Shown here: positions 4,270 through 52,574 of the stretch, piece by piece
Layout: every line of letters starts with the position of its first letter
Position numbering within the stretch: position 1 is the stretch's first letter
Source of the DNA: Actinomycetota bacterium
Lineage (GTDB): Bacteria > Actinomycetota > UBA4738 > CALAEC01
Assembly: GCA_050692985.1 (NCBI GenBank)
Contig: JBOGVZ010000049.1
Coordinates: forward strand, 80,410 to 144,409
Length of the DNA: 64,000 nucleotides
Reading direction: 5' to 3'
Made by a program: the position numbers and the translations under genes
Notes under the pieces: generated by a model
The model's input: only the letters and a program-made list of their open reading frames with translations
What the model was told of the DNA's origin: nothing
Databases searched by the model: none

Positions 4270-5910
4270 TCAGGCGCTCCGCCACCGGGCCTCCAGGGCC
4301 GGGTACACCAGGGCCGCGGCCAGGTACACGAAGGCCACGCTGGCCGTCCCGAACGTGTCGTTGAGCAGCCACCCCGCCATGGCCCCGGCCGCCAGCACCA
4401 CCACGGCGTCGCGCCACGACGGCCGGGCACGGAGCGGAGCGGCGAACGGGCCCCAGCGGCGCCAGGCCACGAGGAACGCCACCGGGATCATCACCAGCGC
4501 CGGCCACACCGCCGGGGTAGCCGAGGTCGCGTCGTAGTTGAGGACCAGCCGATGCCCGAAGGCGCCCAGGGCGCCCTCCGAGACCGCCGTGGTGAGGTGG
4601 GCGCTCACCGGCCACAGGCGATGGGTGACGATGAGGATCCCCACGCCGGCACCGGCGACCGCCGCCGTGACGGCCACCTCCACCGGGCCCAGGCGGCCGC
4701 GGACCCGCAGCGCCCACCACAGCGCGGCCACCACGAACAGCGTCAGGGCCCCGCCGACGTCCGCGCCCAGGAACGGCAGCCCGGCGAACAGGGCCGCGGC
4801 CACGAGCAGGGCCACGCCGGCGGGCGGCCGGAGGACCGCAGCCACCAGGACCGCCCCGGCCAGCACCAGCCCGGCGTAGGAGTTGCCCAGCCCGAAGAAC
4901 CGCACGCCGTCCAGGGCGCTTCCGCCCAGCAGCGGCGTGAGCAGCGCGGGCCACCCCAGGGCGGCGTCCACGGCCACCAGCGCCAGGCCGGTCCCGGCGA
5001 CCACCGTCACCGGGGCCACGGGGCTCCACCGCCGCGACCACAGGGCCACGGCGGCCACCGCCAGGCCGATGACGAGGATCGCCGTCACCACCGCGGCGGG
5101 CTCGAAGGACGGCAGCCAGCTCCCGGGAAGCAGGGCCACGTGGAACGAGATACCCACCAGGCCCCACACGGCCACCGCCCCGGCCAGGCGCGCCGGGGCA
5201 CCGGGCCAGAACAGGATCACCAACCCGGCCACCAGGGCGGCCAGGGCGAACAGCAGCACCGCCAGGCCCACCGGCACGACGACGGTGCGGTACTCGACGT
5301 ACCGCTCATGCAACGCGGTCGGCGCCTCCCCCTCGACCCGGATCGGCGATCCCGTGATGCCCTCCGGGATCGGCTCCCCCAGGAAGGACAGGATCGTCGG
5401 CGCGAGGTCGACCTCCGCCACGATCCCAGGCCGCCGGGTCGTATCGGAGGTCAGGCCCCGGGGCGGCCCTTCTCCCTCCAGGAGCTCCTGGGGAGCGCCG
5501 CGGGCCAGTATGAGGGGCGCGACCCGGCCGGCCTCCGCCGGTGCCGCGGCGATGAGCACCAGGATCTCCTCGGACCCGGCCCCCTGGAGCAGCGCGCGGA
5601 CACCGGCGTCGATCTCGGGCGCGGCCGTGCCCGGGAACAGGATCGTCACGAGCCTTCCAGGGGCCACGTCCACGCTGGCCTCGTCGATCTCTTCCTCGGT
5701 CTCGAGCGGACGGCCGTCCTCCGCCGTCAGCAGGGCCACTCCGCCGGTCCGAGCCAGCTCTCGAAGCGTCGGCTGGGACAGTGCCTCCTGGTAGGTCAGG
5801 CCGGGGATCAGGAGCAGAAGGACCTGGCGGGCCATCTGGGCGGAGGCGGACGGACCGGGGAGCAGCAGGAGCGAGACCAGCAGGAGGGTGAGCCCGCGGG
5901 CTCCCCTCAC
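4270..5910 (-). CDS. Integral membrane protein of unknown function, signal peptide + periplasmic domain + ~12 TM segments
   Basis: 546-aa ORF. It has an N-terminal signal ([16 protein letters not shown]), a ~200-aa soluble region, then many hydrophobic helices. Its GTG start overlaps the murA stop (GTGA). Confidence 0.55.
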
Positions 5911-11433: not shown

Positions 11434-12747
11434 ATGAGCCGACCTGCCGTCCGGGCTCGAGCCGCCGCCGTGCTGGCCTCCACCGCCGTCCTCGCGGGCA
11501 TCCTGGTCAGCACCCCGGCCCGGGCCGAGGCCTGCGGCAACTTCTCCGTCCGCCTGGCCGAGCTGGCCTACGGCGAGCCCGTGGAGTCGGTGTTCAACCC
11601 GGTCCCGGGGGCCCACTTCTACTGGGCCGCCGAGGGATCCCCGAGCGTGGGGTTCACGATCGTGGCCTTCGGCCACGACTGCACCGGGCAGCAACACACC
11701 GCCAGCTTCGCCACGGGAACGGGGACGGCCACCTCGGGCCAGGACTACCAGGCCCGGACCGGGACCACCCCGCAGATGGAGGTTCAGGACATCGACCCGG
11801 AGTACTGGTCCAGCACCATCACCCTGCTGAACGACGCGGTCGCCGAGCCCGCCGTGGAGTACGTCCCGTTCTCGATCACGGCGTCCGGGGCCAACATCGT
11901 GTCCCCATGGTCGGTCCCGGTGTACCTGGTGGACGACGATGGGCTCAGCCGGGTGAGCCTGCCCCCCACCCCGACGAGCTACACCGTGGGTGAGAACGTG
12001 GGGACGTGGAGGATCCCGGTGTTCCGCGCCGGAGACGCCAGCGCGTCGAGCGGCACGATCACCGTCTCCGCCACGCACGGCACCACGGACGACGCCGACT
12101 TCAGCATCTCGCCGTCTTCGTTCTCCTTCGGCCCGGGGCAGCGGAAGCAAGACATCACGGTGACCATCGTTGACGACAAGGACGACGAAGCGGACTCGGA
12201 GTCCTTCACGGTGTCCATCTCCGGCACCCAGGTGGAGGCGCCCTCCAGCGTCACGATGAACATCCTCGACAACGATCTCCCCCCAGGGAGCGACACCGCA
12301 GCTCCCAAGACGTGGTTCCACCACCCAAAGCACAAGAAGGACTATGCGTTCGGCTCGCTCAAGGCCCGGACGATCCACGTGTTCGCCCCCACCGAGGACG
12401 TGGCCAACAAGTACGGCCCGGCCGAGCCCAGCGGGATCGACAAGGTCCAGGCGGCCCTGAAGAGGAAGAAGACCAGCGGCAAGTGCCAGTGGTGGACGGC
12501 CTCCCGCACGTGGAAGGGCGGGAAGTGCGGCTCGCCGAAGTGGTTCAAGCTGAAGTTCGACTTCAAGCTGGCCTCCGACCGCTACCTGTACGTGTACGAC
12601 CTGCTGACGGACCTCAAACCCAGCAAGGGGACCAAGGTCAAGTTCTACCAGGTGTGGTCCCGGGCCCAGGACGGAGCCGGCAACTGGGAGTCCACCTTCG
12701 AGGTCGGCCGGAACAAGAACAGGTTCGAGATCAACAAGAAGAAGTAG
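11434..12747 (+). CDS. Secreted protein with two Calx-beta-like domains and a Lys-rich C-terminal module
   Basis: Signal peptide MSRPAVRARAAAVLASTAVLAGILVSTPARA. Calx-beta signatures: ATGTGTATSGQDYQARTG and TITVSATHGTTDDADF...TIVDDKDDEADSESFTVSIS. From about nt 12300 the sequence drops in GC and becomes Lys-rich (KWFKLKFDFKL...KVKFYQVWSRAQDGAGNWESTFEV). Confidence 0.6.
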   Translation: MSRPAVRARAAAVLASTAVLAGILVSTPARAEACGNFSVRLAELAYGEPVESVFNPVPGAHFYWAAEGSPSVGFTIVAFGHDCTGQQHTASFATGTGTATSGQDYQARTGTTPQMEVQDIDPEYWSSTITLLNDAVAEPAVEYVPFSITASGANIVSPWSVPVYLVDDDGLSRVSLPPTPTSYTVGENVGTWRIPVFRAGDASASSGTITVSATHGTTDDADFSISPSSFSFGPGQRKQDITVTIVDDKDDEADSESFTVSISGTQVEAPSSVTMNILDNDLPPGSDTAAPKTWFHHPKHKKDYAFGSLKARTIHVFAPTEDVANKYGPAEPSGIDKVQAALKRKKTSGKCQWWTASRTWKGGKCGSPKWFKLKFDFKLASDRYLYVYDLLTDLKPSKGTKVKFYQVWSRAQDGAGNWESTFEVGRNKNRFEINKKK

Positions 12748-12777: not shown

Positions 12778-13197
12778 ATGGAGAAGGAATCGCGAGACGC
12801 GCAGGTGGCTCCGGAAGGGACCCGGCGTGTGTGGCGGCGTGTCCTGGCGATCGGGATCGCCCTGGTCCTGGTGGTGGCGATGTCCGCGGTGGCGCTGGCT
12901 GCCGTCCAGAAGGTGAAGGCGGTGGACGGCAACAAGTTCAAGCCCAAGCATGCGTACATCGAGCGGCTCGACAAGATCAAGTGGGTGAACAAGGACAACA
13001 TCACGCACAACGTGAAGTCCACGAACCTGAAGAAGAACTGGAAGTACGGTCCGAAGACCATCAAGCCCGGAGAGAGCGTCAGCCGGAAGTTCAAGAAGCT
13101 GGGGACGTACATCTACCGGTGCACGCTGCATTCCGCGATCGTGAGCGGCGTGTGCGAGGGGATGTGCGGGTTCGTCCACGTGCAGAAGAAGACCTAG
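12778..13197 (+). CDS. Membrane-anchored cupredoxin (plastocyanin/amicyanin-like blue copper protein)
   Basis: RBS gggagga. N-terminal TM anchor. IKWVNKDNITHNV (His ligand region) and GTYIYRCTLHSAIVSGVCEGMCGFVHV (Cys-x2-His...Met type-1 Cu loop). Lys-rich, lower-GC codon usage. Confidence 0.6.
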   Translation: MEKESRDAQVAPEGTRRVWRRVLAIGIALVLVVAMSAVALAAVQKVKAVDGNKFKPKHAYIERLDKIKWVNKDNITHNVKSTNLKKNWKYGPKTIKPGESVSRKFKKLGTYIYRCTLHSAIVSGVCEGMCGFVHVQKKT

Positions 13198-13270: not shown

Positions 13271-15280
13271 CTACGGGCCGGTGTACCTGAAGATGTACAG
13301 GCCGAAGTCCCGGTCGCTGGCCACGATCAGGCGACGGCCCTTGTCATCCTTTCCGGCAAGCTGGACGCCCCAGAAATCGTTCCCACCGATGTCGGCGAAG
13401 TGGCCGACCTCGTTGATCCCGATGTTCTTGCCGTACTTGGCCACCCGGAAGCCACCGTCGTAGTAGGCGAAGTACGCCAGCTTCCGGTTCCCCTTCATCG
13501 AGTCGGTGGCCACCTCGTGGACGGAGTAGGTCCCGCCCTGGATGGCCAGGTCCTCGTCGAGGCCTTCGGGGATGACGTACTGATCGAGCTCGGTGGACGT
13601 CCCGTTGAGCGGGTCGCTCTGGAACAGGTGGCTGTAGCCCCACCCGTCGAAGTGCGCGGTGAAGGCCACGTCGTCACCGACGTCACCGACGTCCGGCTCG
13701 ACGTCGCCGGGGTCACCGACCGGATAGGGCACCGTGTAGTCCGGGGGGTACCCGAACAGCAGGTGCATCTCCCGGTGCCCGATGCAGGTGCCCGGGATCT
13801 GCGGGTCGAAGATGTGCCCCTGGCTCCCGCAGATGAAGGCATCCGGGCTGGCTCCCGCGCCCGACCCGGAGTGGTGGTTGGCGACGATGGCGCCGCCGTA
13901 GCCCAGGAGCTGGGCCGTCTCCACCTTCTCGGAGAAGAAGCAGGCGTCCCCCGGGTTGTTCGGGTCAGAGACCGGTCCCCGCTGGGTCACCAGGATGAGC
14001 TCCTCGTCGGGCCCGGTGGCGATCCCGGTCTCCGCGGCCGTGGGGATGTTGTCCCTGTCGTTCGGGCAGGCATAGCCGCCGAACACCGTCGGACCGTTCA
14101 TCGAGTTGTCCGGCAGCGTGGCGATCGGCACCGTCCACCCGAACTCCCCGGCCGGATACTCGCCGGCGTTGGGTCCGCTCGTGATGAAGTGGTCCTGCCG
14201 GAACGGCGAGAAGTCCTCATCGTTGCCGATGAAGAGCTTCTTGGACCGGTTCCACTCCCCGTAGTGTGCGTTGCCCTCCGGAGGGCAGAACGCGGGGAAG
14301 AACGGCTCGCAGGCGGCGTAGTCGCTGTCGCCCAGGAACACCGGGTTGGCCGGGTCGCTGAGGTCCAGGTTGACCCACCCGCCGTCCCAGTACGACAGCA
14401 GCCCGACTGGCGTGCCGTCGACCTTCTTCGTGGTCAGGTCGTGCAGGAAGGCGTTCGTCCCGAAGGCGTCCACGTTCAGGCTCGGCCAGTCCGGTCGCCC
14501 CGTCTCCTGGATCAACACGGGGTTCGTCGGGTCGCTGAGGTCGAAGATGTCGACGTCGTACTGGCCCGACTCGTTGTTGTCCACCGCGATCGCGTAGACG
14601 TTGCCCCCGCCCTTCCAGGCGAACGCGCTGTGGTACTGGTGAGGGGCGGTGATGATCGCGCCGGGGTCCTGGAAGTGGCCGATCGTGGTGTCGCCCACAC
14701 CCTCGGACAGCTTCACCGCGTCCCGGGGATCCGTGATGTCCCAGATCGTCAGGCCCCCGATGCCGCCCGGGCCGCAGATCTCGTTGGAGATCAGCAGGAT
14801 GTCCCCGGTGAATGCGGCGGTGTTCATGTGGAAGGCCTGCATCCCCTCGGTGGCATAGGTGTTCGTGTGGCTCTTGAGGAACCCGCCGACCTTCCCGGGC
14901 TTCTCTGGGTTGTTCATGTCCACGACCCAGGAGCCGCCCGTGCACAGCTCGAACGGAAGGCCCGCCTGCCACCTGGCCAGATAGGCGAAGCCCTTGTGAT
15001 AGGCCACGTCCGCCACGCGGCTCTCGACCTTCGTGACCTGGAGCTTGCCAACGAGCTTCACGTTGGACTTGGTCCCCTCAGGGCGATTGGTCGCCTTGCC
15101 CTTCGGGGCGGCATGGTCACCCCTCTGTTCCGCCACCTCCTGCATGGTGGTCTGCCCGTCCCGGGCATTCTTGCTGCCCCCACCGTCGCCATCGTCGTCG
15201 GCCGACACTGGGCCGGAGACGAATAATCCGGTGGCCAGCGCAAGGCCGAGGACGAGCGCGAGGCTCCTGCGTCGCTGCAT
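13271..15280 (-). CDS. Secreted LVIVD-repeat beta-propeller protein (paralog 2)
   Basis: Signal MQRRRSLALVLGLALATGLFVSGPVSA followed by a DDDGDGGG acidic linker. Repeats GLTIWDITDPRDAV and YDVDIFDLSDPTNPVL. It sits immediately downstream of copCD on the same strand. Confidence 0.65.
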   Translation of the reverse strand: MQRRRSLALVLGLALATGLFVSGPVSADDDGDGGGSKNARDGQTTMQEVAEQRGDHAAPKGKATNRPEGTKSNVKLVGKLQVTKVESRVADVAYHKGFAYLARWQAGLPFELCTGGSWVVDMNNPEKPGKVGGFLKSHTNTYATEGMQAFHMNTAAFTGDILLISNEICGPGGIGGLTIWDITDPRDAVKLSEGVGDTTIGHFQDPGAIITAPHQYHSAFAWKGGGNVYAIAVDNNESGQYDVDIFDLSDPTNPVLIQETGRPDWPSLNVDAFGTNAFLHDLTTKKVDGTPVGLLSYWDGGWVNLDLSDPANPVFLGDSDYAACEPFFPAFCPPEGNAHYGEWNRSKKLFIGNDEDFSPFRQDHFITSGPNAGEYPAGEFGWTVPIATLPDNSMNGPTVFGGYACPNDRDNIPTAAETGIATGPDEELILVTQRGPVSDPNNPGDACFFSEKVETAQLLGYGGAIVANHHSGSGAGASPDAFICGSQGHIFDPQIPGTCIGHREMHLLFGYPPDYTVPYPVGDPGDVEPDVGDVGDDVAFTAHFDGWGYSHLFQSDPLNGTSTELDQYVIPEGLDEDLAIQGGTYSVHEVATDSMKGNRKLAYFAYYDGGFRVAKYGKNIGINEVGHFADIGGNDFWGVQLAGKDDKGRRLIVASDRDFGLYIFRYTGP

Positions 15281-15402
15281 ACCTCTCCCCCCCTTTCAGG
15301 GTCCGTAGGCGGACGAACTCTAGGCTTTTCCCGACTTGCGGCGCAACCCTCGACCTGGGGGTATCGACCTCCTTGGCCGGCTCTTCTTGTGTGACATGCC
15401 GC

Positions 15403-17352
15403 TCAAGCACCCAACCCGGCCTCGAAGCACCCCGACAGGCCGGCCTCCGGGGCCACTCCGTCGAATCGCCAGCGGCCGGGTTCCAGCCTGGCGTTTGCGG
15501 AGAAGTGGCCTCGCGACAGGGGATCGGCCCGGAGCGTCATGGGATCGGTCCCCGGCTGCCACGCCGTGATCGTTGGGGTACCCGCCGCCACCTCCTCCCC
15601 CCCCTCGTCGAGGAACGTGAAGTGCACCTCGTAGCTGGGCCCCCCGAAATACAGGGTGTATCCCTCCACCGACCCTCCGGCCGGCGGCTCCGTCAGGTAG
15701 ATCGTCGGTTGGGCCGAATCCGGGGGCGGCTCGATCTCCTGGGCCCGGCACACCGTGGCCATCTGGAGGGGCACCTCCACGGCGGTGTCCCCCTCCTGGA
15801 CCAGGACCGCGACGTCCCACACCCCGCCCACGGCCAGGTTGCTGCCCACCCCCCGGTAGTCGCCCTCGTCCTCGGCCTGGAGGGCCAGCGTGGTGTCGCT
15901 CACTCCCCCGCCGGTGAACGAGAAGCGCACCTGCACGCGGTCGGCATCAACCGGCTCGCCGGAGTCGAAGTCGGTCACCTGGACCCGGAACCGGTTCGGG
16001 CCGGGGAGCGCGGGGTCGACCTCGAGCCGGGCACGCACCGAGGTGGCGAAGTCCGACCCTGCGACCGACACCGCGGCCGGCGGGACGGTCACCGGGGGGA
16101 CGGACTGCGGGGGAACCAGCGCGGCCAGGGTCCCCGCGGCGGCAAGCGTGACCGCGCCCAGGACGAGCTCCCCCCTGGAGACGCGGCGCAGCCCCCGCAG
16201 GGAGCGGCGGGCCGCCGGCACGTTCCGGTACCGATTGACGGCTCCCAGTCCGGCCAGCCCCAGCAGGAGCCCGGCCTTCACCAGGACGATCACCCCGTAC
16301 GAGGAGGAAACCAGCTCGCCCCAGGCACCGACCTCGTCCACGGCCCGGAGGACGCCGGTCGCGGCCACCGCGCCCAGGCCGAACGCCGCCACCGCCGAGA
16401 ACCGCCGGACGGCCCGGGCCTTGGCCTCGTCCGTGTCGCCCCGGACACCGACGAGCAGGGCGGCCAGGCCGCCGAGCCACACCCCGGCGGCGGTGAAGTG
16501 GGCCCACTGGAACCCGACGCTGGCCCACTCGAACCGCCCACCCGCGGCCGCATGGCCCGAGGCCACGTGGACCAGGATCCCGGCCGAGGCCACCACGCCG
16601 GCGGCCAACAGGGCGGGGCGCCGGGCCGCGGGGCGCCCCCACGTGGCCACGACCACCAGCACCCCGGCCACCCAGATGGCCGCCGCTCGCCACAGCAGGG
16701 CCCGGCCCACCGGGGTCCCAAGCAGGGCGCCCACCCCGGCGCCGGCCGCCCGCCCCTGGGCCACCGCCAGCCCCGCCAGCCCGAGCGCGGCCACCCCGGA
16801 GGCCCACAGGGCCACCCGCAGCGTCCGCCTGGGCGGCTCCCGGAACGCCAGGGCCCCGACCCACCCGGCTCCCACCACGAACCCCAGCCCGACGAACAGC
16901 GCCCACCGGCCGGCGATCTCCAGGAGGGATGGGGACTCCGAGGGCGGCTCGGGGGTCGGCGGGAGCGTCGCCTGGAGCGGCGACACGCCCACCCCAAAGG
17001 CGAACGCGCCCCCGGTGGGATGGCCGTCCACCCGGGACACCACCCGCCACGTCACGGTGTAGACCCCCTCCTCCAGCGGGCGGAGGCCCACCCGGAGCGC
17101 CAGCGGCTGGCCGGGCACGGGCTCCGCGGAGCCCTCCTGGACCTCGGCCCCTCCCTGGTCGAGCACCCGGACGTGTGACAGCGAGGGCTCCGGGGGCTCG
17201 GTCAGGGTGATCGTGACCTCCCGGGGACCCTCCTCGACCTGGGCGCCGTCGGCGGGATCGGACCCGCTCAGCAGGGCGTGGGCTCGGGCCGGGGTTGGGA
17301 GCGACAGCAGCGCCGCCGTGGCCACGGCGGCTGCCAGGAGGAGGCGTCGCAC
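15403..17352 (-). CDS. copCD: Fused CopC-CopD copper resistance/uptake protein (YcnJ-like)
   Basis: GTG start giving VRRLLLAAAVATAALLSLPTPARA-HALLSGSDPADGAQV. The CopC cupredoxin-like domain (TWRVVSRVDGHPTGGAFAFGV) is followed by a ~8-TM CopD domain and a C-terminal soluble domain. Confidence 0.8.
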   Translation of the reverse strand: MRRLLLAAAVATAALLSLPTPARAHALLSGSDPADGAQVEEGPREVTITLTEPPEPSLSHVRVLDQGGAEVQEGSAEPVPGQPLALRVGLRPLEEGVYTVTWRVVSRVDGHPTGGAFAFGVGVSPLQATLPPTPEPPSESPSLLEIAGRWALFVGLGFVVGAGWVGALAFREPPRRTLRVALWASGVAALGLAGLAVAQGRAAGAGVGALLGTPVGRALLWRAAAIWVAGVLVVVATWGRPAARRPALLAAGVVASAGILVHVASGHAAAGGRFEWASVGFQWAHFTAAGVWLGGLAALLVGVRGDTDEAKARAVRRFSAVAAFGLGAVAATGVLRAVDEVGAWGELVSSSYGVIVLVKAGLLLGLAGLGAVNRYRNVPAARRSLRGLRRVSRGELVLGAVTLAAAGTLAALVPPQSVPPVTVPPAAVSVAGSDFATSVRARLEVDPALPGPNRFRVQVTDFDSGEPVDADRVQVRFSFTGGGVSDTTLALQAEDEGDYRGVGSNLAVGGVWDVAVLVQEGDTAVEVPLQMATVCRAQEIEPPPDSAQPTIYLTEPPAGGSVEGYTLYFGGPSYEVHFTFLDEGGEEVAAGTPTITAWQPGTDPMTLRADPLSRGHFSANARLEPGRWRFDGVAPEAGLSGCFEAGLGA

Positions 17353-17368
17353 AGGGCCCTGCGGGTGG

Positions 17369-18001
17369 CTAGGAGGCACGGCGTCCGGCCAGGCCGGCCC
17401 CGGCCAGGACCACGGCCAGGGCGGCCAGGACGACGGCCACGATCGCCAGCACGGTAGAGGCGCCGGCACCGGATCCCAGGTCCTGCGCCTGGATGTCCTG
17501 CCGGAGCGCCTGGATGCGGGAGTCGATCCGATCCAGCCTGGTGGCCAGCTCCCCGGCGGTGGGGTCCCGGGCCGGGAACTGCGCGTCCGCGGGGTTCTGG
17601 ACGTCGTCGAACGTCTCGCCCGAGGTGAACTCCTCGTCGAAGTCCCGACCGGCCAGCGCGCCGGTGATGAGGAACGTGTAGGTCCCCGGGCGGGTCGGGA
17701 TCAGGAACGCGTGGTACTCGCCGGGGCTGCCGAACGCGGGAAGGAGGGGCAGCGGCTCGGTCGACTCCGTGCTGTCGGGGTCGCCGAACAGCACCTGGAC
17801 CTCCAGGTCGGCCCCCCGGACGGGCCGGTTGCCCCGGACCGCCGTGAGCTGGACCGCGTTGGCGAAGCCGGCGAAGGCGGGCTCTTCGAGCCAGCCGACC
17901 TCAACCTCCAACGGCCCGACCTGCCGTTCCTCGTGGGCCCGGGCCGGGGTGAGCGTCAGCAGCAGGACCCCGGACGCGGCAACGACGACACCCCTCCACA
18001 C
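17369..18001 (-). CDS. ycnI: YcnI-like (DUF1775) copper-binding protein with C-terminal TM anchor
   Basis: Signal MWRGVVVAASGVLLLTLTPARA, then the mature protein starts HEERQVG (N-terminal His). It ends in a C-terminal hydrophobic anchor. It lies directly upstream of copCD, matching the ycnI-ycnJ arrangement. Confidence 0.65.
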   Translation of the reverse strand: MWRGVVVAASGVLLLTLTPARAHEERQVGPLEVEVGWLEEPAFAGFANAVQLTAVRGNRPVRGADLEVQVLFGDPDSTESTEPLPLLPAFGSPGEYHAFLIPTRPGTYTFLITGALAGRDFDEEFTSGETFDDVQNPADAQFPARDPTAGELATRLDRIDSRIQALRQDIQAQDLGSGAGASTVLAIVAVVLAALAVVLAGAGLAGRRAS

Positions 18002-18045
18002 GGCCCGCCAAGTGTAGCGGGTGCCCGCGCGCAGGGGCGTCGGTG

Positions 18046-18792
18046 CTAGGGGGCCGGCGTGAGGCCCTCGGCCACCCGGGTGAGCTCGTCCAGGCCGAGC
18101 CCGTACTCGTTCACCGAGTGGAAGGTGCAGTCCTTCGTCGGGTCGCTCGTGGCGCCCCTATTCGGGTGCCGGAACTGGACCATGAAGTCCTCGCCCGCCG
18201 GGCCTTCCTCGTAGTTCGGGACCACCGGGCCGAAGTCGGCCGTCTCCCGGCCGAGCACGGTGATCGTGGGGCCGCCCTCCTCCTGGACGATCTCCACGAA
18301 CAGCATCCCCGGGCGGCGGATCTCGAACGACCGCTCGCCGTCGGTCCAGTGCACCACGCCCTGGCCGTCCTCCGCAGGGTAGATCGACTGGGGGGCGGGC
18401 CCCGGCACCGGGTCCTCGGAGAACCCCTCAGGCAGGTGCGACGGCTCGAAACCCAGCGGGCCGGGGCAGGCCCCGGTCAGGACCACTGAGGACCCCCCGA
18501 CGGGGCTGGGGGTCAGTTCCGCAGTGGCCGTCTCCTCCGGGGTCGGCGAGGGGGCGCTGGGAGAGCCGAAGCCCACCGGTGGCCGCTCCCCTCGGACCGC
18601 CTCCAGGGCCCGGGGGACGCCCACCGCGGCGGCGGCGATCACCGCGGCCGCGGCCATCCCCGCACCGACCCGGTAGAGGGTGCGGCGGCGCCGTCCCCCC
18701 GACACGACCCGGCGCAGCGACGGATCCACCTCGGGATCCGCGTCGGCCGCCAGCCGGGGCAGCCCGTCGCGCAGCCGGTCATCCAGCGACAT
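18046..18792 (-). CDS. Putative anti-sigma factor (single TM, proline-rich extracytoplasmic domain)
   Basis: Starts MSLDDRLRDGLPRLAAD and overlaps the sigma-factor stop by ~14 nt. There is a TM segment at MAAAAVIAAAAVGV. Assignment rests on position and topology only. Confidence 0.5.
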   Translation of the reverse strand: MSLDDRLRDGLPRLAADADPEVDPSLRRVVSGGRRRRTLYRVGAGMAAAAVIAAAAVGVPRALEAVRGERPPVGFGSPSAPSPTPEETATAELTPSPVGGSSVVLTGACPGPLGFEPSHLPEGFSEDPVPGPAPQSIYPAEDGQGVVHWTDGERSFEIRRPGMLFVEIVQEEGGPTITVLGRETADFGPVVPNYEEGPAGEDFMVQFRHPNRGATSDPTKDCTFHSVNEYGLGLDELTRVAEGLTPAP

Positions 18793-19303
18793 CAGAGACC
18801 TCCTCCTCTCCCAGCACCTCGGCCAGGCGCTTCCGCGCCCGGTGGAGGTGCACCTTGGCGGTCGAGGTGGCGCATCCCATGATCTCGGCCACCTCGGCCA
18901 CCGGTCGATCCTCGAAGTAGTGCAGGACCACCGCGGCCCGCTGCGAGGACGGCAGTCCCAGCAGCGCCCGGCGGAGGTCCGGGTCGGACACTGGCTCGGT
19001 CCGTCCCGGGTCCTCGACCTCCGCCTGGAGCACGGTCCGCCGGCCGGCCCGCAGCGACCGCGACGCCAGCCTGATGGCCACCCGGCGGACCCAGGCACCC
19101 GGACGTTCGTACCGGGAGATGCGCCGCCACCGCGCGTACAGTCGGATGAAGGCCTCCTGGGCGACGTCTTCCGCCGCCGCCCGGTCGCCCAGCATCAGGT
19201 ACGCCGTGCGCACGATCGCGGGGTACTCGTCACGGAACAGCCAACCGAACGCGGTGTCCGTGTCCGTCTCCCGTGCCACTCGCAGCTCCGTGGTCAGTGC
19301 CAT
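18779..19303 (-). CDS. ECF-type RNA polymerase sigma factor (sigma-70 family, group 4)
   Basis: MALTTELRVARETDTDTAFGWLFRDEYPAIVRTAYLMLGDRAAAEDVAQEAFIRLYARW (region 2) and LPSSQRAAVVLHYFEDRPVAEVAEIMGCATSTAKVHLHRARKRL (region 4 HTH). Confidence 0.85.
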   Translation of the reverse strand: MALTTELRVARETDTDTAFGWLFRDEYPAIVRTAYLMLGDRAAAEDVAQEAFIRLYARWRRISRYERPGAWVRRVAIRLASRSLRAGRRTVLQAEVEDPGRTEPVSDPDLRRALLGLPSSQRAAVVLHYFEDRPVAEVAEIMGCATSTAKVHLHRARKRLAEVLGEEEVSDVAG

Positions 19304-19364
19304 ACCCTCCCACAGCCCCGGGCGTCGGGGAAGGTTTACCGACGACGGGGCCCTTCCCGGAGGC

Positions 19365-20030
19365 CTACCGGCGGTCGAGCTCCTCTCGAAGGGCTCCCAG
19401 GGCATCGGCTTCCTCGGGGGTGCGGGCCAGCCGGATCAGGTCGTCGACCGAGGCCACGCGGACCGTGAAGTCGCCCATCGGGACAGCCTCCGCGGCGCGG
19501 TCGAGGAGCTCGTAGGAGCCCACGCGGCGGAGCGCCCACCGCGGCGTCACGGTCCCGTACCGGATCCGGCCCGCTCCCAGCCGCTGGACGGCCAGCCGCA
19601 GGCGGCGACGGTTCATGGCGTCCGGCCGGGGAGCAACCTCAACCGTGCTCGGCCAGGCGGGCGCCCCGCGCAGCAACGCGGCCACGCCCCCGATCGCCAC
19701 ACATCGGACGCGGCGGCCCCTGACGAGGATCCGGAGCACCTGGGCCGGCCGGAAGCCTGGGGCGCTCGCATGTGCCAGGCGCTCGGACGGGGTCAGCCGC
19801 AGGAGGTCCCGGATTTCCTTCCGGTCCACGTCCATCCCGAGTCGGGGCTCGACCGCCAGCGAGGCCCCGCACGCTCGCAGGAGCCGCTCGAGCGTGTCGA
19901 CCCGGGGGATGCCCCCGCCACGCTCGATGCGCGCCACGGCGGGCTGAGGCAGCCCGGCCCGCCGGGCCACCTCGGCCTGGGTCAGCCCCGCACGAGCCCG
20001 TGCCTCCCGGAGGACCCTCGCAGCGTTCAC
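19365..20030 (-). CDS. XRE-family HTH transcriptional regulator with C-terminal domain of unknown function
   Basis: N-terminal LTQAEVARRAGLPQPAVARIERG matches a Cro/C1-type HTH. It lies 61 nt upstream of the ECF sigma gene on the same strand. Confidence 0.6.
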   Translation of the reverse strand: MNAARVLREARARAGLTQAEVARRAGLPQPAVARIERGGGIPRVDTLERLLRACGASLAVEPRLGMDVDRKEIRDLLRLTPSERLAHASAPGFRPAQVLRILVRGRRVRCVAIGGVAALLRGAPAWPSTVEVAPRPDAMNRRRLRLAVQRLGAGRIRYGTVTPRWALRRVGSYELLDRAAEAVPMGDFTVRVASVDDLIRLARTPEEADALGALREELDRR

Positions 20031-46799: not shown

Positions 46800-48752
46800 T
46801 CACCCTTCGATCTCCTCCCTGAAGTACGCGTCGACCGGGGTTCCCTCCGGCGTCGAGCCCTCCACCCGGAACGTCCACCGGCCCGCCCCGAGGTCCTCCT
46901 GGGCCACGAAGTGCCCCGGGGAGAGCACAACCGGGTCCAGCAGGAGCGGTGCCCCGGTTTCGGGAGCGGCCTCGAAACGGGCGACCTCTACCGGCTGCTC
47001 GGCCCCTTCTGGGGTGAGGAAGGTGAGGTGGACCTCGTTGGGGCCTTCCTTCCCCGGATCGACGAATCCCTGGATCGAGATCCCGTTCGGCAGCGCGATC
47101 GTGTAGATGGTGGGCTGGCCCTCCGCCTCGGAGACCGTGATGTCCTGGGGTGGGAGGCGGGTGCGGAGCCCGAGGTCGATCGTCCGGGAGTCCCCGCCCA
47201 GGAGGACCAACGCGTCGACCTCCCAGGAGCCGTCGACCGAGAGGTTGGGCCCCTCGGCTCGCCACGCTGCCTGCCCGACGCTCTCCAGGTCCAGCTCCGA
47301 GGGCGCGATGTCCGGCCGAGAGGGGAGGGAGAACGACAGACGAACGCCAGTCGCGTCCACGGGCTCTCCCTCGCCGTCCGTGACCCTCACGTCGAATCGA
47401 TTGACCCCCGCCGTGCCGGGGGTGGCGGTCAGCCGGACATGGAGCAATCCCGCGGGATCCGACCCCTCGGCCACCACGCGGGCGGGAGCAACCGGAGGGG
47501 GGGCCTGGGCCGGCGGGGGGAGACCGGCCATCAGGCCGGTGAGCCCGAAGACTCCCGCCCCGATGGCCAGCTCGGCGCCCACCGTGCGGCGGAGGGTCCC
47601 GAACAGCCGGCCGCGCGAGGAGATGCGGGGGACGATCCGGTACCGGTTGTAGGCGCCCAGGGCCAGCAGACCCAGGAACAGGGCGCTCTTGCCCACCACG
47701 GTCAGGCCGAAGCCCGTGTCGATCAGGCGATCCGGCTCCAGGCCCACCTGGTTCAGCGCGCGGAGGACCCCCGTCACGGCCACCACGGGGAGGGCCACCG
47801 TGGCCAGCGCGGAGAACCGGCGGACGGCACCGGAGCGTTCCTCGTCCGGCTCCCCCCTGATCCCCACCAGGAGCCACAGCAGCCCTCCCACCCAGGCCGC
47901 CACGCTGAGGATGTGGACCCACTGCACCCCGACGTGCAGGGGCGCGTTCTCCACGGCGCTGGCATGGCCGGCGAAGGCGTGGACCAGCATGGCGAGGGCG
48001 GCCGCCGCGGCGAGGATCGCGGCGATCCACCGGCGGGGCCGGAGCGCCGAGGCCGCGGTCGCCGGCAGGGCCAGCAGGACGACGGCGCCGCGCGCCACGA
48101 GGAGCCGGCCCCGCTCGGATCCCAGCAGCTCGGCCGCGGGGACGTCCACGGCGGCACGCTCGGCCAGGAACATGCCGAGGACGCCGAGGGCGGCCGCGGC
48201 CCAGGCGAGCCACAGCAACCCCGGCACCGGACTCCGTGCCCGGAAGACAAGGAGGCGCCCCAGGGCCCCGCCGAACAGCAACGCGAGCCCCCAGTAGAAG
48301 GCCCACCGGGATCCGACGGCCAGGGGGGTGGGACGCTCCTGGGTCGGGTAGGACCCCTTGGGCTCGGCGACAGGCTCCACCGCCTGGCCCACCCCGAAGG
48401 CGAACGACCCCGTGGTGACGTGACCGTCGGCCGTGGAGAGGACCCGCCAGCTCACCGTGTACGTGCCCCGGGACAACTCCGGCAGCGACACCCTGAGCCC
48501 GCGTGGCTGGCCGGCGACGCCCTCGAGGGGGCCGACCTCCACGGGGGCTCCGGTGGAGTCGAACACCCGGATCTGCGACAGCCCGTGATCGGGCGGCTCG
48601 GTGAACGTGATCACGATCTCCGGCGGGGCGGTGTCGAGCACATCGCCGTTGGCCGGGGAGGAGCTCTGCAGGAGCGCGTGGGCGTGGGCGGCCGGGCCGG
48701 TCATCACCAGCCCGGCCGCCGCCAGCCCGAGAACGACGAGCGCCCGCCGCAC
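46800..48752 (-). CDS. copCD: Fused CopC-CopD protein, second copy
   Basis: MRRALVVLGLAAAGLVMTGPAAHA-HALLQSSSPANGDVL. CopC domain (YTVSWRVLSTADGHVTTGSFAFGV), then CopD TM helices, then a C-terminal soluble domain. Same architecture as 15403-17352. Confidence 0.8.
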   Translation of the reverse strand: MRRALVVLGLAAAGLVMTGPAAHAHALLQSSSPANGDVLDTAPPEIVITFTEPPDHGLSQIRVFDSTGAPVEVGPLEGVAGQPRGLRVSLPELSRGTYTVSWRVLSTADGHVTTGSFAFGVGQAVEPVAEPKGSYPTQERPTPLAVGSRWAFYWGLALLFGGALGRLLVFRARSPVPGLLWLAWAAAALGVLGMFLAERAAVDVPAAELLGSERGRLLVARGAVVLLALPATAASALRPRRWIAAILAAAAALAMLVHAFAGHASAVENAPLHVGVQWVHILSVAAWVGGLLWLLVGIRGEPDEERSGAVRRFSALATVALPVVAVTGVLRALNQVGLEPDRLIDTGFGLTVVGKSALFLGLLALGAYNRYRIVPRISSRGRLFGTLRRTVGAELAIGAGVFGLTGLMAGLPPPAQAPPPVAPARVVAEGSDPAGLLHVRLTATPGTAGVNRFDVRVTDGEGEPVDATGVRLSFSLPSRPDIAPSELDLESVGQAAWRAEGPNLSVDGSWEVDALVLLGGDSRTIDLGLRTRLPPQDITVSEAEGQPTIYTIALPNGISIQGFVDPGKEGPNEVHLTFLTPEGAEQPVEVARFEAAPETGAPLLLDPVVLSPGHFVAQEDLGAGRWTFRVEGSTPEGTPVDAYFREEIEG

Positions 48753-48755
48753 CGC

Positions 48756-49378
48756 TCAGGCCGCTCGCTTCCTCCACAGGGCCATGACCGCCACCACCAG
48801 GGCCAGGACCCCCGCCGCGATCCCCACGTAGGCCAGTGTTTGCGCCGACGAGGCCTCGTCGGACGCCCCCGCCTCCGCGCTCACCTGCTCGATGAGGTCG
48901 CCCAGCTCGGCGTTCGACGGGTCATCCACGGGGAACGCTACCTCGCCCGGATCTTCGATGTCGCTGAAGGTCTCGGGCCCGGAGGTGAACATCTCGTCCA
49001 CCTCCTGGTCCTCTACGGTCCCGAAGATGCGGAAGGTCCACGTCCCAGCGCGGGTCGGATAGATGTCCGTGTTGTAGTTCCCCGGCTCGCCGAAGACGCC
49101 CACCACGAACGCCGGCTCGAGGACAGCCGTCATTGTCTCGCCCTCGAAGCGATCTCCACCTGAAGCTCGACGCCCTCGACGACGGGGTCGCCCCGCGAGT
49201 CGGTGATGGTCACCTCCGGGCCGTTCTTCGCGTTGGCGAAGGCGGGCTCGTCGTACCACCCCACCACGAACTCGTAGTCTCCGACTTGGCGGCTCTCGTG
49301 CGCCGCGGCCGGAGCGGCCGGCATCGCCACCAGCGCGCCGGCGGCCAGCGCGATCACCGCGCGTGCAGCGTTACGCAT
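48756..49378 (-). pseudogene. ycnI: YcnI-like copper-binding protein gene disrupted by a frameshift
   Basis: The N-terminal piece (49130-49378: signal + AHESRQVGDYEFVVGWYDEPAFANA...VELQVEIASRARQ*) and the C-terminal piece in another frame (48756-49259: ...FEGETMTAVLEPAFVVGVFGEPGNYNTDIYPTRAGTWTFRIF...TM anchor) both align to the intact YcnI at 17369-18001. The frame switches near 49130-49160. Confidence 0.6.
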
Positions 49379-49451
49379 GTGTCCTCCCTTTTCGTAGGTT
49401 CGACCGACGCTCGCCGAGAGACCCGGGCGGCGCCGAGGTGCTACGGATCGG

Positions 49452-50042
49452 TCAGGAAGAGGGAGGCCCCCGAAGGGTGAGCCCGCCCAAGGCCACGTGC
49501 GCGTGCGACGGGGTGTAGACGACGGCGGAAGGGGGTCTCAGCGCGCGGGGCGCCCGGGCCCTTCGGGGCCGCATCGCGGATACCAGCGCTTCGACCATCC
49601 TCGTCACCAGGACGACCAGCGCTGCGATGGCCAGGGCAACCACGACCTGGAGGCCGACTCCGATCAGGAACGCCGGTTCGCGCACCAGGTCGAGCGGCCC
49701 GTGACCCGACAGGATCCGCTCGACGAACTCCAGGAGGCCGAAGCCGAGGACCTGCACCAGGATCAGGCGGGCCGCGGCGTGAGCGAGCACGCCTCCGAGT
49801 GACGGCGCTCCCCCGGATCGCCGCCACAGAGCCAGGTGGATGAACGTGGCGACCACTCCGGCAACGGCGATCGCCGGGAGCGCGGGCCACCAGGCGTGCC
49901 CGGTGCTGTGGAGCAGGGCCTCCCGTTCGGCCTCGTGAGGAACGGCGAGCCGGAAGGCCACGACGTGAGCCAGGGCGATCCCGGACCCGGCCATCGCTCC
50001 GAGGACCAGCCGCATGCGGAGGCTGACGCGTCCGCCCATCAT
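49452..50042 (-). CDS. His-containing polytopic membrane protein of unknown function
   Basis: 196 aa with 4-5 predicted TM helices and HVVAF...HEAEREALLHSTGH. It is located upstream of the ycnI-copCD-2 unit. Confidence 0.45.
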   Translation of the reverse strand: MMGGRVSLRMRLVLGAMAGSGIALAHVVAFRLAVPHEAEREALLHSTGHAWWPALPAIAVAGVVATFIHLALWRRSGGAPSLGGVLAHAAARLILVQVLGFGLLEFVERILSGHGPLDLVREPAFLIGVGLQVVVALAIAALVVLVTRMVEALVSAMRPRRARAPRALRPPSAVVYTPSHAHVALGGLTLRGPPSS

Positions 50043-51086: not shown

Positions 51087-52574
51087 TCAGTCCCGCATCG
51101 GGGCCTTGGCGATCTCCTTGAGGAACTGCTCGTTCGACTTCGTGGCCCGGATCTTGTCGATGAGCATCTCGATGGAGGCCCCGCTGTCGAGGGCGTGGAG
51201 CACCCGGCGGAGCCGCCACGTGAGAGCCAGCTCCTCGCTGGGCATGAGGCGCTCCTCCTTGCGGGTCCCCGAGGCCTCGATGTTGATGGCCGGGAAGATC
51301 CGCTTCTCGGAGAGCTGCCGGTCGAGCCGGAGCTCCATGTTCCCGGTGCCCTTGAACTCCTCGAAGATCACCTCGTCCATGCGCGACCCGGTCTCCACCA
51401 GGGCGCTGGCGATGATCGTCAGCGACCCGCCCTCCTCGATGTTTCGGGCCGCCCCGAAGAACCGCTTGGGCGGGTACAGCGCGGTGGAGTCCACGCCTCC
51501 CGACAGGATCTTCCCGGACGCGGGCGCTGCCAGGTTGTAGGCCCGGGCCAGCCGGGTGACCGAGTCGAGCAGGATGGCCACGTTCTGGCCGGACTCCACC
51601 AGCCGCTTGGCACGCTCCAGCACCAGCTCGGTGACCTGGATGTGCTGGTCGGCCGGCTTGTCGAACGTGGAGTACACGACCTCGGCGGCCTCCACGGTCC
51701 GCTGCCAGTCCGTGACCTCCTCGGGACGCTCGTCCACCAGCAGGACCATCACGTGGGTCTTCGAGTCGGCGGTGATGATCCCGTTGGCGATCTGCTTGAG
51801 GACCGTGGTCTTGCCGGCCTTGGGCGGCGAGACCACCATCCCTCGCTGCCCCTTCCCGATGGGGGCCACCAGGTCGATGATCCGCTCGGTCACCGCGGTC
51901 GGTCCGCTCTCCAGGCGGAACCGCTCCTCCGGGAACAGGGGGGTGAGCTTCTCGAACTGGGGGCGCTCGCGGGCCTCATCCGGGCTCATCCCGTTGACGG
52001 TGTCGATGCGCAGCAGCGCGAAGTACTTCTCGCTGTCCTTGGGGTGGCGCACCGCGCCGGTGACCTCGTCACCCTTGCGCAGCGCGAACCGGCGGATCTG
52101 CGACAGCGAGACGTAGACGTCCTGGGCGCTGGGCAGGTATCCGCCGGTGCGGAGGAAGCCGTACCCCTCCGGGAGGATGTCGAGGATGCCGGTGTGCACC
52201 GGCGCCTCGGCCAGCTCCTCCTCGGTGGCCTCGCGGGGTCCCCGCTCACGCCGGCGATCCCGTCCCCGGCGCCCGCGACCGTCCCGGCCGTCGGGCCGGC
52301 GGTCCCTGGGCGGGGCCTGCGTTCGGACCTGCCCGCCACCGCCCTCGGAGCCCTGGCGAGCCTCGCCGGAGCCCTGGGCGGCCCGGGAGGCCTCCCCGCC
52401 GTCTCCGGCGGACCGGCGGGCCTCCCCGTCGTCCGAGCGGGCCACGATGGCGTCGATGAGGTCACCCTTCTTCAGCCGCTGGTGCCCCTCGACGCCCAGC
52501 CCCGAGGCGATCTCCTGGAGCTCGGGCAGGACCTTCTGCTCGAGCTTGGATCGATCCACGGTTCGAGATTCCAC
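51087..52574 (-). CDS. rho: Transcription termination factor Rho (with Arg/Gly/Asp-rich N-terminal insertion)
   Basis: N-terminal Rho_N ([35 protein letters not shown]), RNA-binding CSD, and a RecA-type ATPase (PPKAGKTT). A ~80-aa RG/RD-rich insert separates the N-terminal domains. Confidence 0.95.

Follow-up and report, generated by a model that had tools for sequence, protein, structure and literature searches.

The window analyzed here, i.e., the whole stretch of 64,000 nucleotides (nt) from a high-GC metagenome-assembled Actinomycetota genome, harbors on its minus strand four tightly spaced genes that encode an extracytoplasmic function (ECF) sigma factor, a membrane protein (hereafter, the partner), a small exported YtkA-like protein (gene 3), and a CopC-CopD fusion protein (gene 4, CopCD). 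These genes represent two independently conserved modules, arranged head to tail and joined in this lineage; the explanation of the locus that is built on them below is, on balance, somewhat probable. Module A (19339..18046) would consist of an autoregulated ECF sigma factor and its cognate single-pass membrane partner; module B (18001..15403) includes the YtkA-like gene and CopCD, normally lies behind the gene of a protein with four transmembrane (4-TM) segments, and has been placed behind module A in this lineage. Homologues were found for all four genes. A preliminary description of the locus had interpreted them as a single operon in which the sigma pair controls copper uptake by YcnI and CopCD. 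The tight spacing reported there is correct, since the 14-nt overlap between the sigma and partner genes (ATGTCGCTGGATGA) and the 44-nt gap between the partner gene and gene 3 can be read directly from the sequence; the gap between gene 3 and CopCD, given as 17 nt, measures 16 nt.

Distribution of the two modules

A total of 36 other loci encoding relatives of the YtkA-like gene 3 product were examined. The CopCD gene is located directly after the YtkA-like gene in 33 of them, and in about 17 the two genes are directly preceded by an unannotated gene for a 4-TM protein of about 190 amino acids (aa). Neither the sigma gene nor the partner gene adjoins the YtkA-like/CopCD pair in any of the 36 loci, which argues that the copper genes are normally independent of this sigma factor. 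The 4-TM family is characterized by conserved GH motifs (examples are L001:5347-5907, L002:5318-5914, and L003:5353-5952), has no match in Pfam or NCBIfam, and may represent a third component of the copper module. A second copper module, with the canonical arrangement, was retrieved by tblastn in the window itself (Table 1), between rho (52574..51087) and a DUF1385 gene. The apparent frameshift in its YtkA-like gene might be due either to the formation of a pseudogene or to an assembly error.

As for the sigma/partner pair, seven further contexts of the partner were inspected (L037, L038, L039, L040, L045/L046, L047/L048, and L041, the last one with the partner truncated at the contig end and the upstream side out of sight); a scan of metagenomes for more partner loci returned three loci, one of them usable. 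In the contexts other than L041, the pair is followed by HEPN/MNT genes, EPSP synthase, BNR proteins, proteins with faint LVIVD matches, or unknown genes. Three places show the fusion of the sigma pair with the copper pair, i.e., the window, L041, and one other contig, and it is confined to these very close relatives; L041 is collinear with the window, with 80% nucleotide identity and the same 44-nt gap. A different arrangement is present in L037, whose sequence is 93% identical to that of L041 at the nucleotide level. This locus keeps the sigma gene, the partner gene, and the 5' half of a hairpin located at the junction of the two modules; after the hairpin half (L037:940-1190), the sequence enters the gene for the 669-aa secreted protein, which in the window follows CopCD, at about codon 595 (i.e., within its last 75 codons), and contains an in-frame TAG. 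This is a clean natural deletion of about 4.3 kb that removed the copper pair. Since the other contexts of the sigma pair differ and L037 has lost the copper genes, the pair is not maintained for the sake of the latter. Together with the 36 copper loci, none of which lies behind this sigma pair, this does not bear out the earlier proposal of a regulator dedicated to copper.

The possibility that the copper pair was recently acquired by horizontal transfer was also considered. It was set aside because the G+C content at third codon positions (0.87-0.94 for all four genes) is typical of the host genome and the same as that of the surrounding genes.

Table 1. Features of the window discussed in the text (positions are those of the window).
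Feature	Coordinates	Strand	Remarks
Candidate autoregulatory ECF promoter	19311..19339	minus	GTAAACC-N16-GCTGTG; 3' end 7 nt ahead of the sigma ATG
Sigma gene	19303..18779	minus	ATG start, 174 aa
Membrane partner gene	18792..18046	minus	248 aa; overlaps the sigma gene
Junction hairpin	17986..18042	minus	57 nt; spans the greater part of the 44-nt gap plus codons 1-5 of gene 3
Gene 3, YtkA-like	18001..17369	minus	GTG start, 210 aa
Gene 4, CopCD	17352..15403	minus	GTG start, 649 aa
XRE-family helix-turn-helix (HTH) protein	19365-20030	minus	221 aa; 3' end 61 nt upstream of the sigma start
Secreted 669-aa protein	13271..15280	minus	next co-directional gene, 122 nt past CopCD; weak PA-domain match as the only Pfam match within the protein
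Small secreted cupredoxin	12778..13197	plus	plastocyanin/azurin type
Secreted Calx-beta protein	11434..12747	plus	
Second canonical copper module	46800..50042	minus	found by tblastn
4-TM protein of the second module	50042..49452	minus	
YtkA-like copy 2	49378..48756	minus	apparent single-base frameshift near 49150 (six-frame reading)
CopCD copy 2	48752..46800	minus	Pfam CopC, CopD, and FixH; 40% identical to copy 1

Composition of the copper pair

The gene 3 product had been labeled YcnI. It is known that YcnI is defined by a DUF1775 domain, a mono-histidine brace (N-terminal His27, Glu50, and Trp137), and a C-terminal helix (PMC8424229). The gene 3 product has no match to DUF1775 (PF07987) at E<=0.01, and this domain is absent from the list of 25 families that 28 members of the gene 3 family match at E<=1. 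Neither the gene 3 sequence nor the family profile matches the PDB entry of YcnI at E<=10, and the hhalign comparison of the family with the genuine DUF1775 protein of L039 covers 35 columns, which take in nothing but the signal peptide and the Ala-His (AH) pair of its cleavage site. The YcnI identity is thus ruled out by the Pfam, NCBIfam, and PDB sequence and profile searches and by the alignment to a true DUF1775 protein. The DUF1775 (YcnI-type) gene of L039 (L039:11955-12738) lies beside a CopCD gene, on the opposite strand and about 5 kb from the sigma/partner pair of that locus; therefore, true YcnI-CopCD pairs and YtkA-like-CopCD pairs coexist in this organism group.

The similarity that can be recognized in gene 3 is that to YtkA (PF13115), with an E-value of 0.0069 and 17.5 bits, below the Pfam cut-off of 25.9. 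Matches to YtkA were obtained for 20 of the 28 family members at E<=1 (the best one at 2e-6), and some database relatives carry a pre-existing PF13115 annotation. The homologues of gene 3, 115 in protein clusters at 90% identity, are named either 'hypothetical' or 'YtkA-like', and the NCBI protein that is 100% identical to the gene 3 product bears the name 'MAG: hypothetical protein ACRDI0_06435 [Actinomycetota bacterium]'. Gene 3 looks like a divergent relative of YtkA, belonging to an unannotated YtkA/CtaK-like beta-sandwich family.

The product of gene 3 is organized as a signal peptide, a mature N-terminal His23, a beta sandwich, a coiled helix, and a C-terminal transmembrane anchor (a hydrophobic segment at aa 174-208, modeled as a helix). 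The signal peptide has the n-h-c layout and an A-x-A site, with the putative cleavage between ARA and HEERQ, and at each of A20, A22, and H23, 90% or more of the 28 family members have the same residue; the N-terminal histidine of the mature protein, already suggested in the preliminary description, is therefore plausible. Residues G36, E40, P41, P102, G106, Y108, G114, F142, P143, and P147 are invariant in the family. The family also keeps an invariant G-W-x-x-E-P motif on the strand that follows the His-bearing one, where W37 is mostly conserved. Equivalents of Glu50 and Trp137 of YcnI cannot be assigned by sequence alignment; the strand bearing E40 and W37 pairs with the His-bearing strand, and the register of this beta hairpin would bring them close to the histidine. 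The AlphaFold2 (AF2) model (mean predicted local distance difference test score, pLDDT, 84.9) consists of an Ig-like beta sandwich, a long helix, and a C-terminal membrane helix, and its best PDB fold matches, all of them weak, are the Helicobacter pylori copper protein CrdA, filamin-type domains, FetP, and FtrA. Because of the A-x-A site followed by His, the conserved motif on the next strand, the anchor, and the adjacency to CopCD, gene 3 resembles YcnI in architecture and gene position; the gene 3 family mimics YcnI in these respects, yet it is a different family.

The label of a CopC-CopD fusion given to gene 4 was confirmed and can be refined to the YcnJ type. Its product matches four Pfam families above their cut-offs, i.e., CopC (78 bits), CopD (66.5), FixH (38), and YtkA (32.7), and the CopD and CopC models of NCBIfam match it as well. 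The best PDB match of the CopC domain is Bacillus subtilis YcnJ (9c14), with the DGHP motif aligned and with His25 aligned to His1 of the solved structure; this histidine is the first residue after a signal peptide with the same layout as that of gene 3, with the putative cleavage between ARA and HALL. About eight to nine hydrophobic segments can be recognized in the protein. On these grounds, gene 4 codes for a YcnJ-type CopC-CopD-YtkA/FixH membrane protein with histidine-brace residues.

Module B would represent a copper acquisition and delivery pair: copper would pass between the small protein and the histidine brace of CopC, its inward transport would fall to CopD, and the loading of extracytoplasmic cuproproteins would be assisted by the YtkA-type domains. 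The current name of YtkA is CtaK; this membrane-tethered factor acts in the assembly of CuA, and its function overlaps that of the YtkA domain in YcnJ (PMC13344008); the exchange of Cu(II) between YcnI and YcnJ and the function of YtkA/CtaK represent the published support for this functional analogy (PMC12154828, PMC13344008). In uncultured Actinomycetota and in several other phyla, YcnJ-type proteins usually have a member of the gene 3 family as their partner, and this family is a candidate for copper handling that lends itself to a comparison with the YcnI-YcnJ exchange model. A more far-reaching proposal, which we regard as speculative and rather doubtful, is that gene 3 encodes a member of an undescribed family of membrane-anchored Cu(II) carriers, with a YtkA-type fold and an independently gained YcnI-like mono-histidine brace. 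This brace would be formed by the amino terminus and His23 together with the invariant Glu40, beside Trp37. In many uncultured Actinomycetota and in other soil phyla, members of this family would take the place of YcnI beside YcnJ-type importers, and one copy would have been captured here by an envelope-signal ECF operon, the hairpin that buries its start codon making its translation conditional on the transcript of that operon.

The sigma pair and the junction with the copper genes

The assignment of the first gene to the ECF sigma factors is borne out. The protein is small and contains only two regions, sigma-2 plus sigma-4 (Pfam Sigma70_r2, E 1.4e-12, and Sigma70_r4_2, E 1e-16); it scores 75 bits against the NCBIfam sigma70-ECF model (TIGR02937, cut-off 42.9) and 139 bits, just under the cut-off of 141.55, against the actinobacterial SigE-family model (TIGR02983). 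Its orthologues in the related loci share 68-83% identity with it, and the start at 19303 fits the N-termini of the homologues.

Upstream of the sigma gene lies the sequence GTAAACC-N16-GCTGTG, which is present exactly, and with the same spacing, ahead of the orthologous sigma genes in L039, L040, L045, and L047/L048. In these five independent loci (the window included) it is found ahead of the sigma gene and nowhere else, and in the 64-kb window it occurs only once. Judging from position and conservation, it looks like an autoregulatory ECF promoter. Relaxed searches with the motif gave no more matches than shuffled sequence, and nothing above chance was found when a second copy was sought ahead of gene 3, CopCD, the 669-aa gene, the cupredoxin gene, and the second copper module. 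Since the motif is present nowhere else in the window, any control of the copper genes by this sigma factor would have to occur by read-through, which is possible. In L046 (about 5440-5500), the region upstream of the sigma gene is the same as in L045, except for about 31 nt, including the GTAAACC element, that are missing; this loss could reflect strain variation in the putative promoter or a difference between assemblies.

The gap between the two modules is largely occupied by a stable hairpin, in which both the GUG start codon of gene 3 and the purine-rich GGCGGG upstream of it are paired, and whose apical region/loop contains the sequence TACACT (18016..18011), 9 nt ahead of the gene 3 start. 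The 91-nt junction segment has a folding energy of -58.2 kcal/mol (z -3.58), with 0/200 shuffled sequences as stable, and a z of -4.0 was obtained for the orthologous junction of L041. The two hairpins share 20 pairs, two with compensatory changes and one with a one-sided change, which suggests, from these two sequences only, that the structure is conserved. There is no T-tract at the junction. A scan of the region 15000..19800 for canonical promoters and terminators yielded no two-hexamer promoter and no relevant T-tract terminator, and Rfam, searched over the whole window, gave no family at its gathering score. The hairpin could act as a translation gate in a read-through transcript or, if the copper pair has a promoter to itself, as an insulator between this pair and the sigma operon. 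The former reading, i.e., that the copper pair is co-transcribed from the sigma promoter and that the hairpin gates the translation of gene 3, is slightly favored; co-transcription with the sigma operon, considered by itself, has about even chances.

According to the latter reading, the two modules would be independent neighboring units: the hairpin would act as a tail-less terminator or insulator, and the copper pair would have a housekeeping-type promoter to itself, in which TACACT serves as the -10 element, and would yield a nearly leaderless mRNA. The strength and conservation of the hairpin are in agreement with this possibility, as are the separate evolutionary histories of the two modules. 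Moreover, a TANNNT sequence is found 9 nt ahead of the GTG in the window and 8 nt ahead of the ATG in L041, and canonical copper modules show one 4-10 nt ahead of the first start codon, which fits leaderless expression. However, a terminator would not usually lack a T-tract and have its 3' arm within coding sequence, as is the case for this hairpin and gene 3; the consensus scan gave no two-hexamer promoter; a TANNNT is expected by chance in a 44-nt stretch about one time in ten (an estimate from base composition); and its conservation rests on two sequences that are about 85% identical. This explanation is therefore considered possible, but less probable than the gated read-through.

The second protein of module A can be divided into four parts, i.e., a cytoplasmic N-terminal module (N-module, aa 1-40), a transmembrane helix (about aa 41-63), a Pro-rich linker, and an outer domain (aa ~100-248). 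A single hydrophobic segment (about aa 39-66), preceded by GRRRR, indicates a single-pass topology with the N-terminus inside. The partner has no sequence match in Pfam, NCBIfam, or the PDB, the recognized anti-sigma domains zf-HC2, RskA, and CnrY included; among 26 members of its family, the single match to CnrY has an E-value of 0.08 and is not significant. It has 43 close full-length homologues, all from uncultured Actinomycetota. Their alignment revealed an invariant N-terminus (MSLDDRLR..L..LA followed by GRRRR), one hydrophobic helix, a variable Pro-rich linker, and a conserved C-terminal domain, in which C109, H148-W149, and C222 are invariant. A complete ECF sigma gene is located upstream of the partner gene in four of the inspected contexts, and in L037 and L038 the contig ends within the sigma gene; the overlap between the two genes amounts to 11-14 nt in each of these six contexts. 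The membrane protein translationally overlapping the sigma factor, as first described, is thus confirmed by the overlap in the window, by the single-pass topology, and by the retention of the overlap elsewhere. The partner is very probably a membrane-bound regulator of the sigma factor and a probable anti-sigma factor.

The Pro-rich extracytoplasmic domain attributed to this protein stands as far as the presence of a Pro-rich stretch is concerned; this stretch (about aa 67-105), however, is a disordered and poorly conserved linker, with a pLDDT below 50, and the conserved folded domain comes after it. In the AF2 model, the C-terminal domain is predicted with confidence, and the cytoplasmic segment of about 40 residues forms two helices. 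The top 11 PDB matches retrieved by Foldseek with this model are all MucB/RseB (E 4e-4 to 0.1, probability 0.87-1.0), and the partner family has no match to the MucB_RseB family of Pfam; the model, although with low TM-scores, points to a sensor domain of the LolA/RseB (MucB/RseB-like) type. A profile search covering 1.84 billion representative proteins, in which 417 proteins match the partner profile, divides the partner into two parts. Its first 90 positions or so match hundreds of proteins with other outer domains (e.g., Germane/Gmad2 and PD40), and in the one such protein whose context was checked (L049) the gene likewise overlaps an ECF sigma gene. The C-terminal domain is also found alone, in a neighborhood that includes a two-component system and an amidase and is devoid of copper genes; in the proteins outside a copper context it keeps the Cys/His positions. 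Most likely, the short N-module would hold the sigma factor in the manner of a class II anti-sigma segment, and the extracytoplasmic domain would report an envelope cue, such as a lipid, lipoprotein, or cell-wall signal. It is known that class II anti-sigma domains are short cytoplasmic segments of a size comparable to that of this module (PMC6851896). The N-module (MSLDxRLR...GRRRR plus transmembrane helix) is widespread, the members with a checked context adjoin ECF sigma genes, and it could mark a class of anti-sigma factors of actinobacteria that is not yet curated and whose sensor domains are interchangeable.

The sensing of copper by the partner, as had been supposed, is unsupported: its outer domain resembles MucB/RseB rather than a metal sensor, nothing ties it to copper, and it probably does not report this metal. 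The corresponding explanation of the locus is that of a copper-responsive ECF system, in which the anti-sigma factor senses extracytoplasmic copper and frees the sigma factor, which then drives the copper-uptake genes as a dedicated regulon. It finds some consistency in the same orientation and tight spacing of the four genes with no T-tract terminator between them, in the arrangement kept in L041, in the invariance of C109, H148, and C222, in the cupredoxin genes recurring nearby, and in the precedents of CarQ/CarR and CorE (PMC6851896), but it is improbable in view of the unrelated genes that follow the sigma/partner family elsewhere, of the 36 copper loci devoid of an adjoining sigma pair, of the outer domain (its Cys/His included) occurring outside copper contexts, of its fold matching the lipid-binding MucB/RseB, of the natural variant that keeps the sigma pair after the loss of the copper genes, and of the absence of the sigma motif ahead of gene 3 and of the second copper module.

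Some points weigh against the preferred interpretation, i.e., an envelope-signal sigma pair to which a copper pair was joined. The similarity of the outer domain to MucB/RseB comes with a TM-score of about 0.25 and a root-mean-square deviation of 6.3-8.8 Å, and the N-module matches no curated anti-sigma domain. The invariant C109, H148, and C222 could in principle form a Cu(I) site instead of a disulfide. A cupredoxin gene recurs in the vicinity of the sigma pair, complete in the window and L040 and fragmentary in L045, and represents a loose link to copper. Moreover, co-transcription and hairpin gating are conjectures, and the binding of copper by the YtkA-like protein, through His23 in particular, is proposed on the basis of conservation and analogy.

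Gene neighborhood and comparison with known systems

The genes that surround the locus were classified by Pfam; they include the XRE-type HTH gene, the sigma pair itself, and those for the 669-aa secreted protein, the cupredoxin, and the Calx-beta protein. No YcnK/CsoR-type copper repressor was found among the neighboring genes, the rest of the window being without an exhaustive regulator scan. The best NCBIfam matches of the XRE-type protein are antitoxin-type HTH models, and upstream of its gene lie the ATP synthase genes atpC, atpD, atpG, and atpA. The gene for the 669-aa secreted protein may belong to the same transcription unit as CopCD, and no unusual structure was detected in the gap between them (z +1.3). 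A homologue likewise follows copCD in L041, where the contig includes 123 of its residues, at 74% identity; the protein is also 52% identical to the 674-aa gene product located beside the sigma pair in L037 and 38% identical to a homologue encoded about 3.7 kb downstream in L047. The 669-aa protein is related to proteins with faint LVIVD matches, and such proteins adjoin the sigma/partner pair in L040 and L045. Relatives of at least one of the Calx-beta, cupredoxin, and 669-aa genes are found near the pair in L037, L040, L045, and L047. The genes for these secreted proteins may represent the real functional neighborhood of the sigma/partner pair.

The closest comparison for module B is the ycnKJI system of B. 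subtilis, which comprises the importer YcnJ, its Cu(II)-binding partner YcnI, and the repressor YcnK. The CopC-CopD-YtkA fusion with the CopC histidine brace is common to both systems, and in both the adjacent gene encodes a small extracytoplasmic protein that combines a beta sandwich with a signal peptide, a histidine at the mature N-terminus, and a C-terminal transmembrane anchor, as described for YcnI (PMC8424229). However, the small protein here is not a DUF1775 protein, the gene order is reversed, with the small protein first, and no YcnK/CsoR-type regulator is adjacent, the upstream position being occupied by the ECF sigma pair (and by the 4-TM protein in most relatives). The gene 3 product can also be compared with CtaK (YtkA) of B. 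subtilis, since it is likewise membrane-tethered, extracytoplasmic, and placed in a copper-handling context, and YtkA is its only family signal. Unlike CtaK, it is anchored by a C-terminal helix and not by a lipid, its YtkA score is below the Pfam cut-off, and its family adds the N-terminal histidine and the GW-x-x-EP motif outside the YtkA match.

Module A shares with the RpoE-RseA-RseB and AlgU-MucA-MucB systems an ECF sigma factor and a single-pass membrane partner in one transcription unit, as well as an outer domain whose best structural matches are MucB/RseB. The differences are that the membrane partner itself carries the RseB-like fold here, whereas in those systems this is a periplasmic protein of its own, that no match to the RseA, RseB, or zf-HC2 domains exists at the sequence level, and that the host is an actinobacterium without an outer membrane. 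The CnrH-CnrY, CarQ/CarR, and CorE systems represent the precedent for ECF sigma factors in metal responses (PMC6851896). With respect to CnrH-CnrY, the cytoplasmic segment of the partner, with its two helices, is near the class II anti-sigma domains in size, but there is no significant match to CnrY (the one among 26 mentioned above) and no CnrX-like sensor; with respect to CorE, the sigma factor of the window, with its sigma-2 and sigma-4 regions only, is devoid of the CorE-type Cys-rich extension. The revised description is relevant because it corrects an attractive yet unsupported label, 'ECF-controlled YcnI/CopCD copper uptake', which, if left standing, would be passed on as a novel paradigm of regulation. 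The findings presented here do not overturn the current understanding of these systems; they describe a lineage-specific juxtaposition of known kinds of system.

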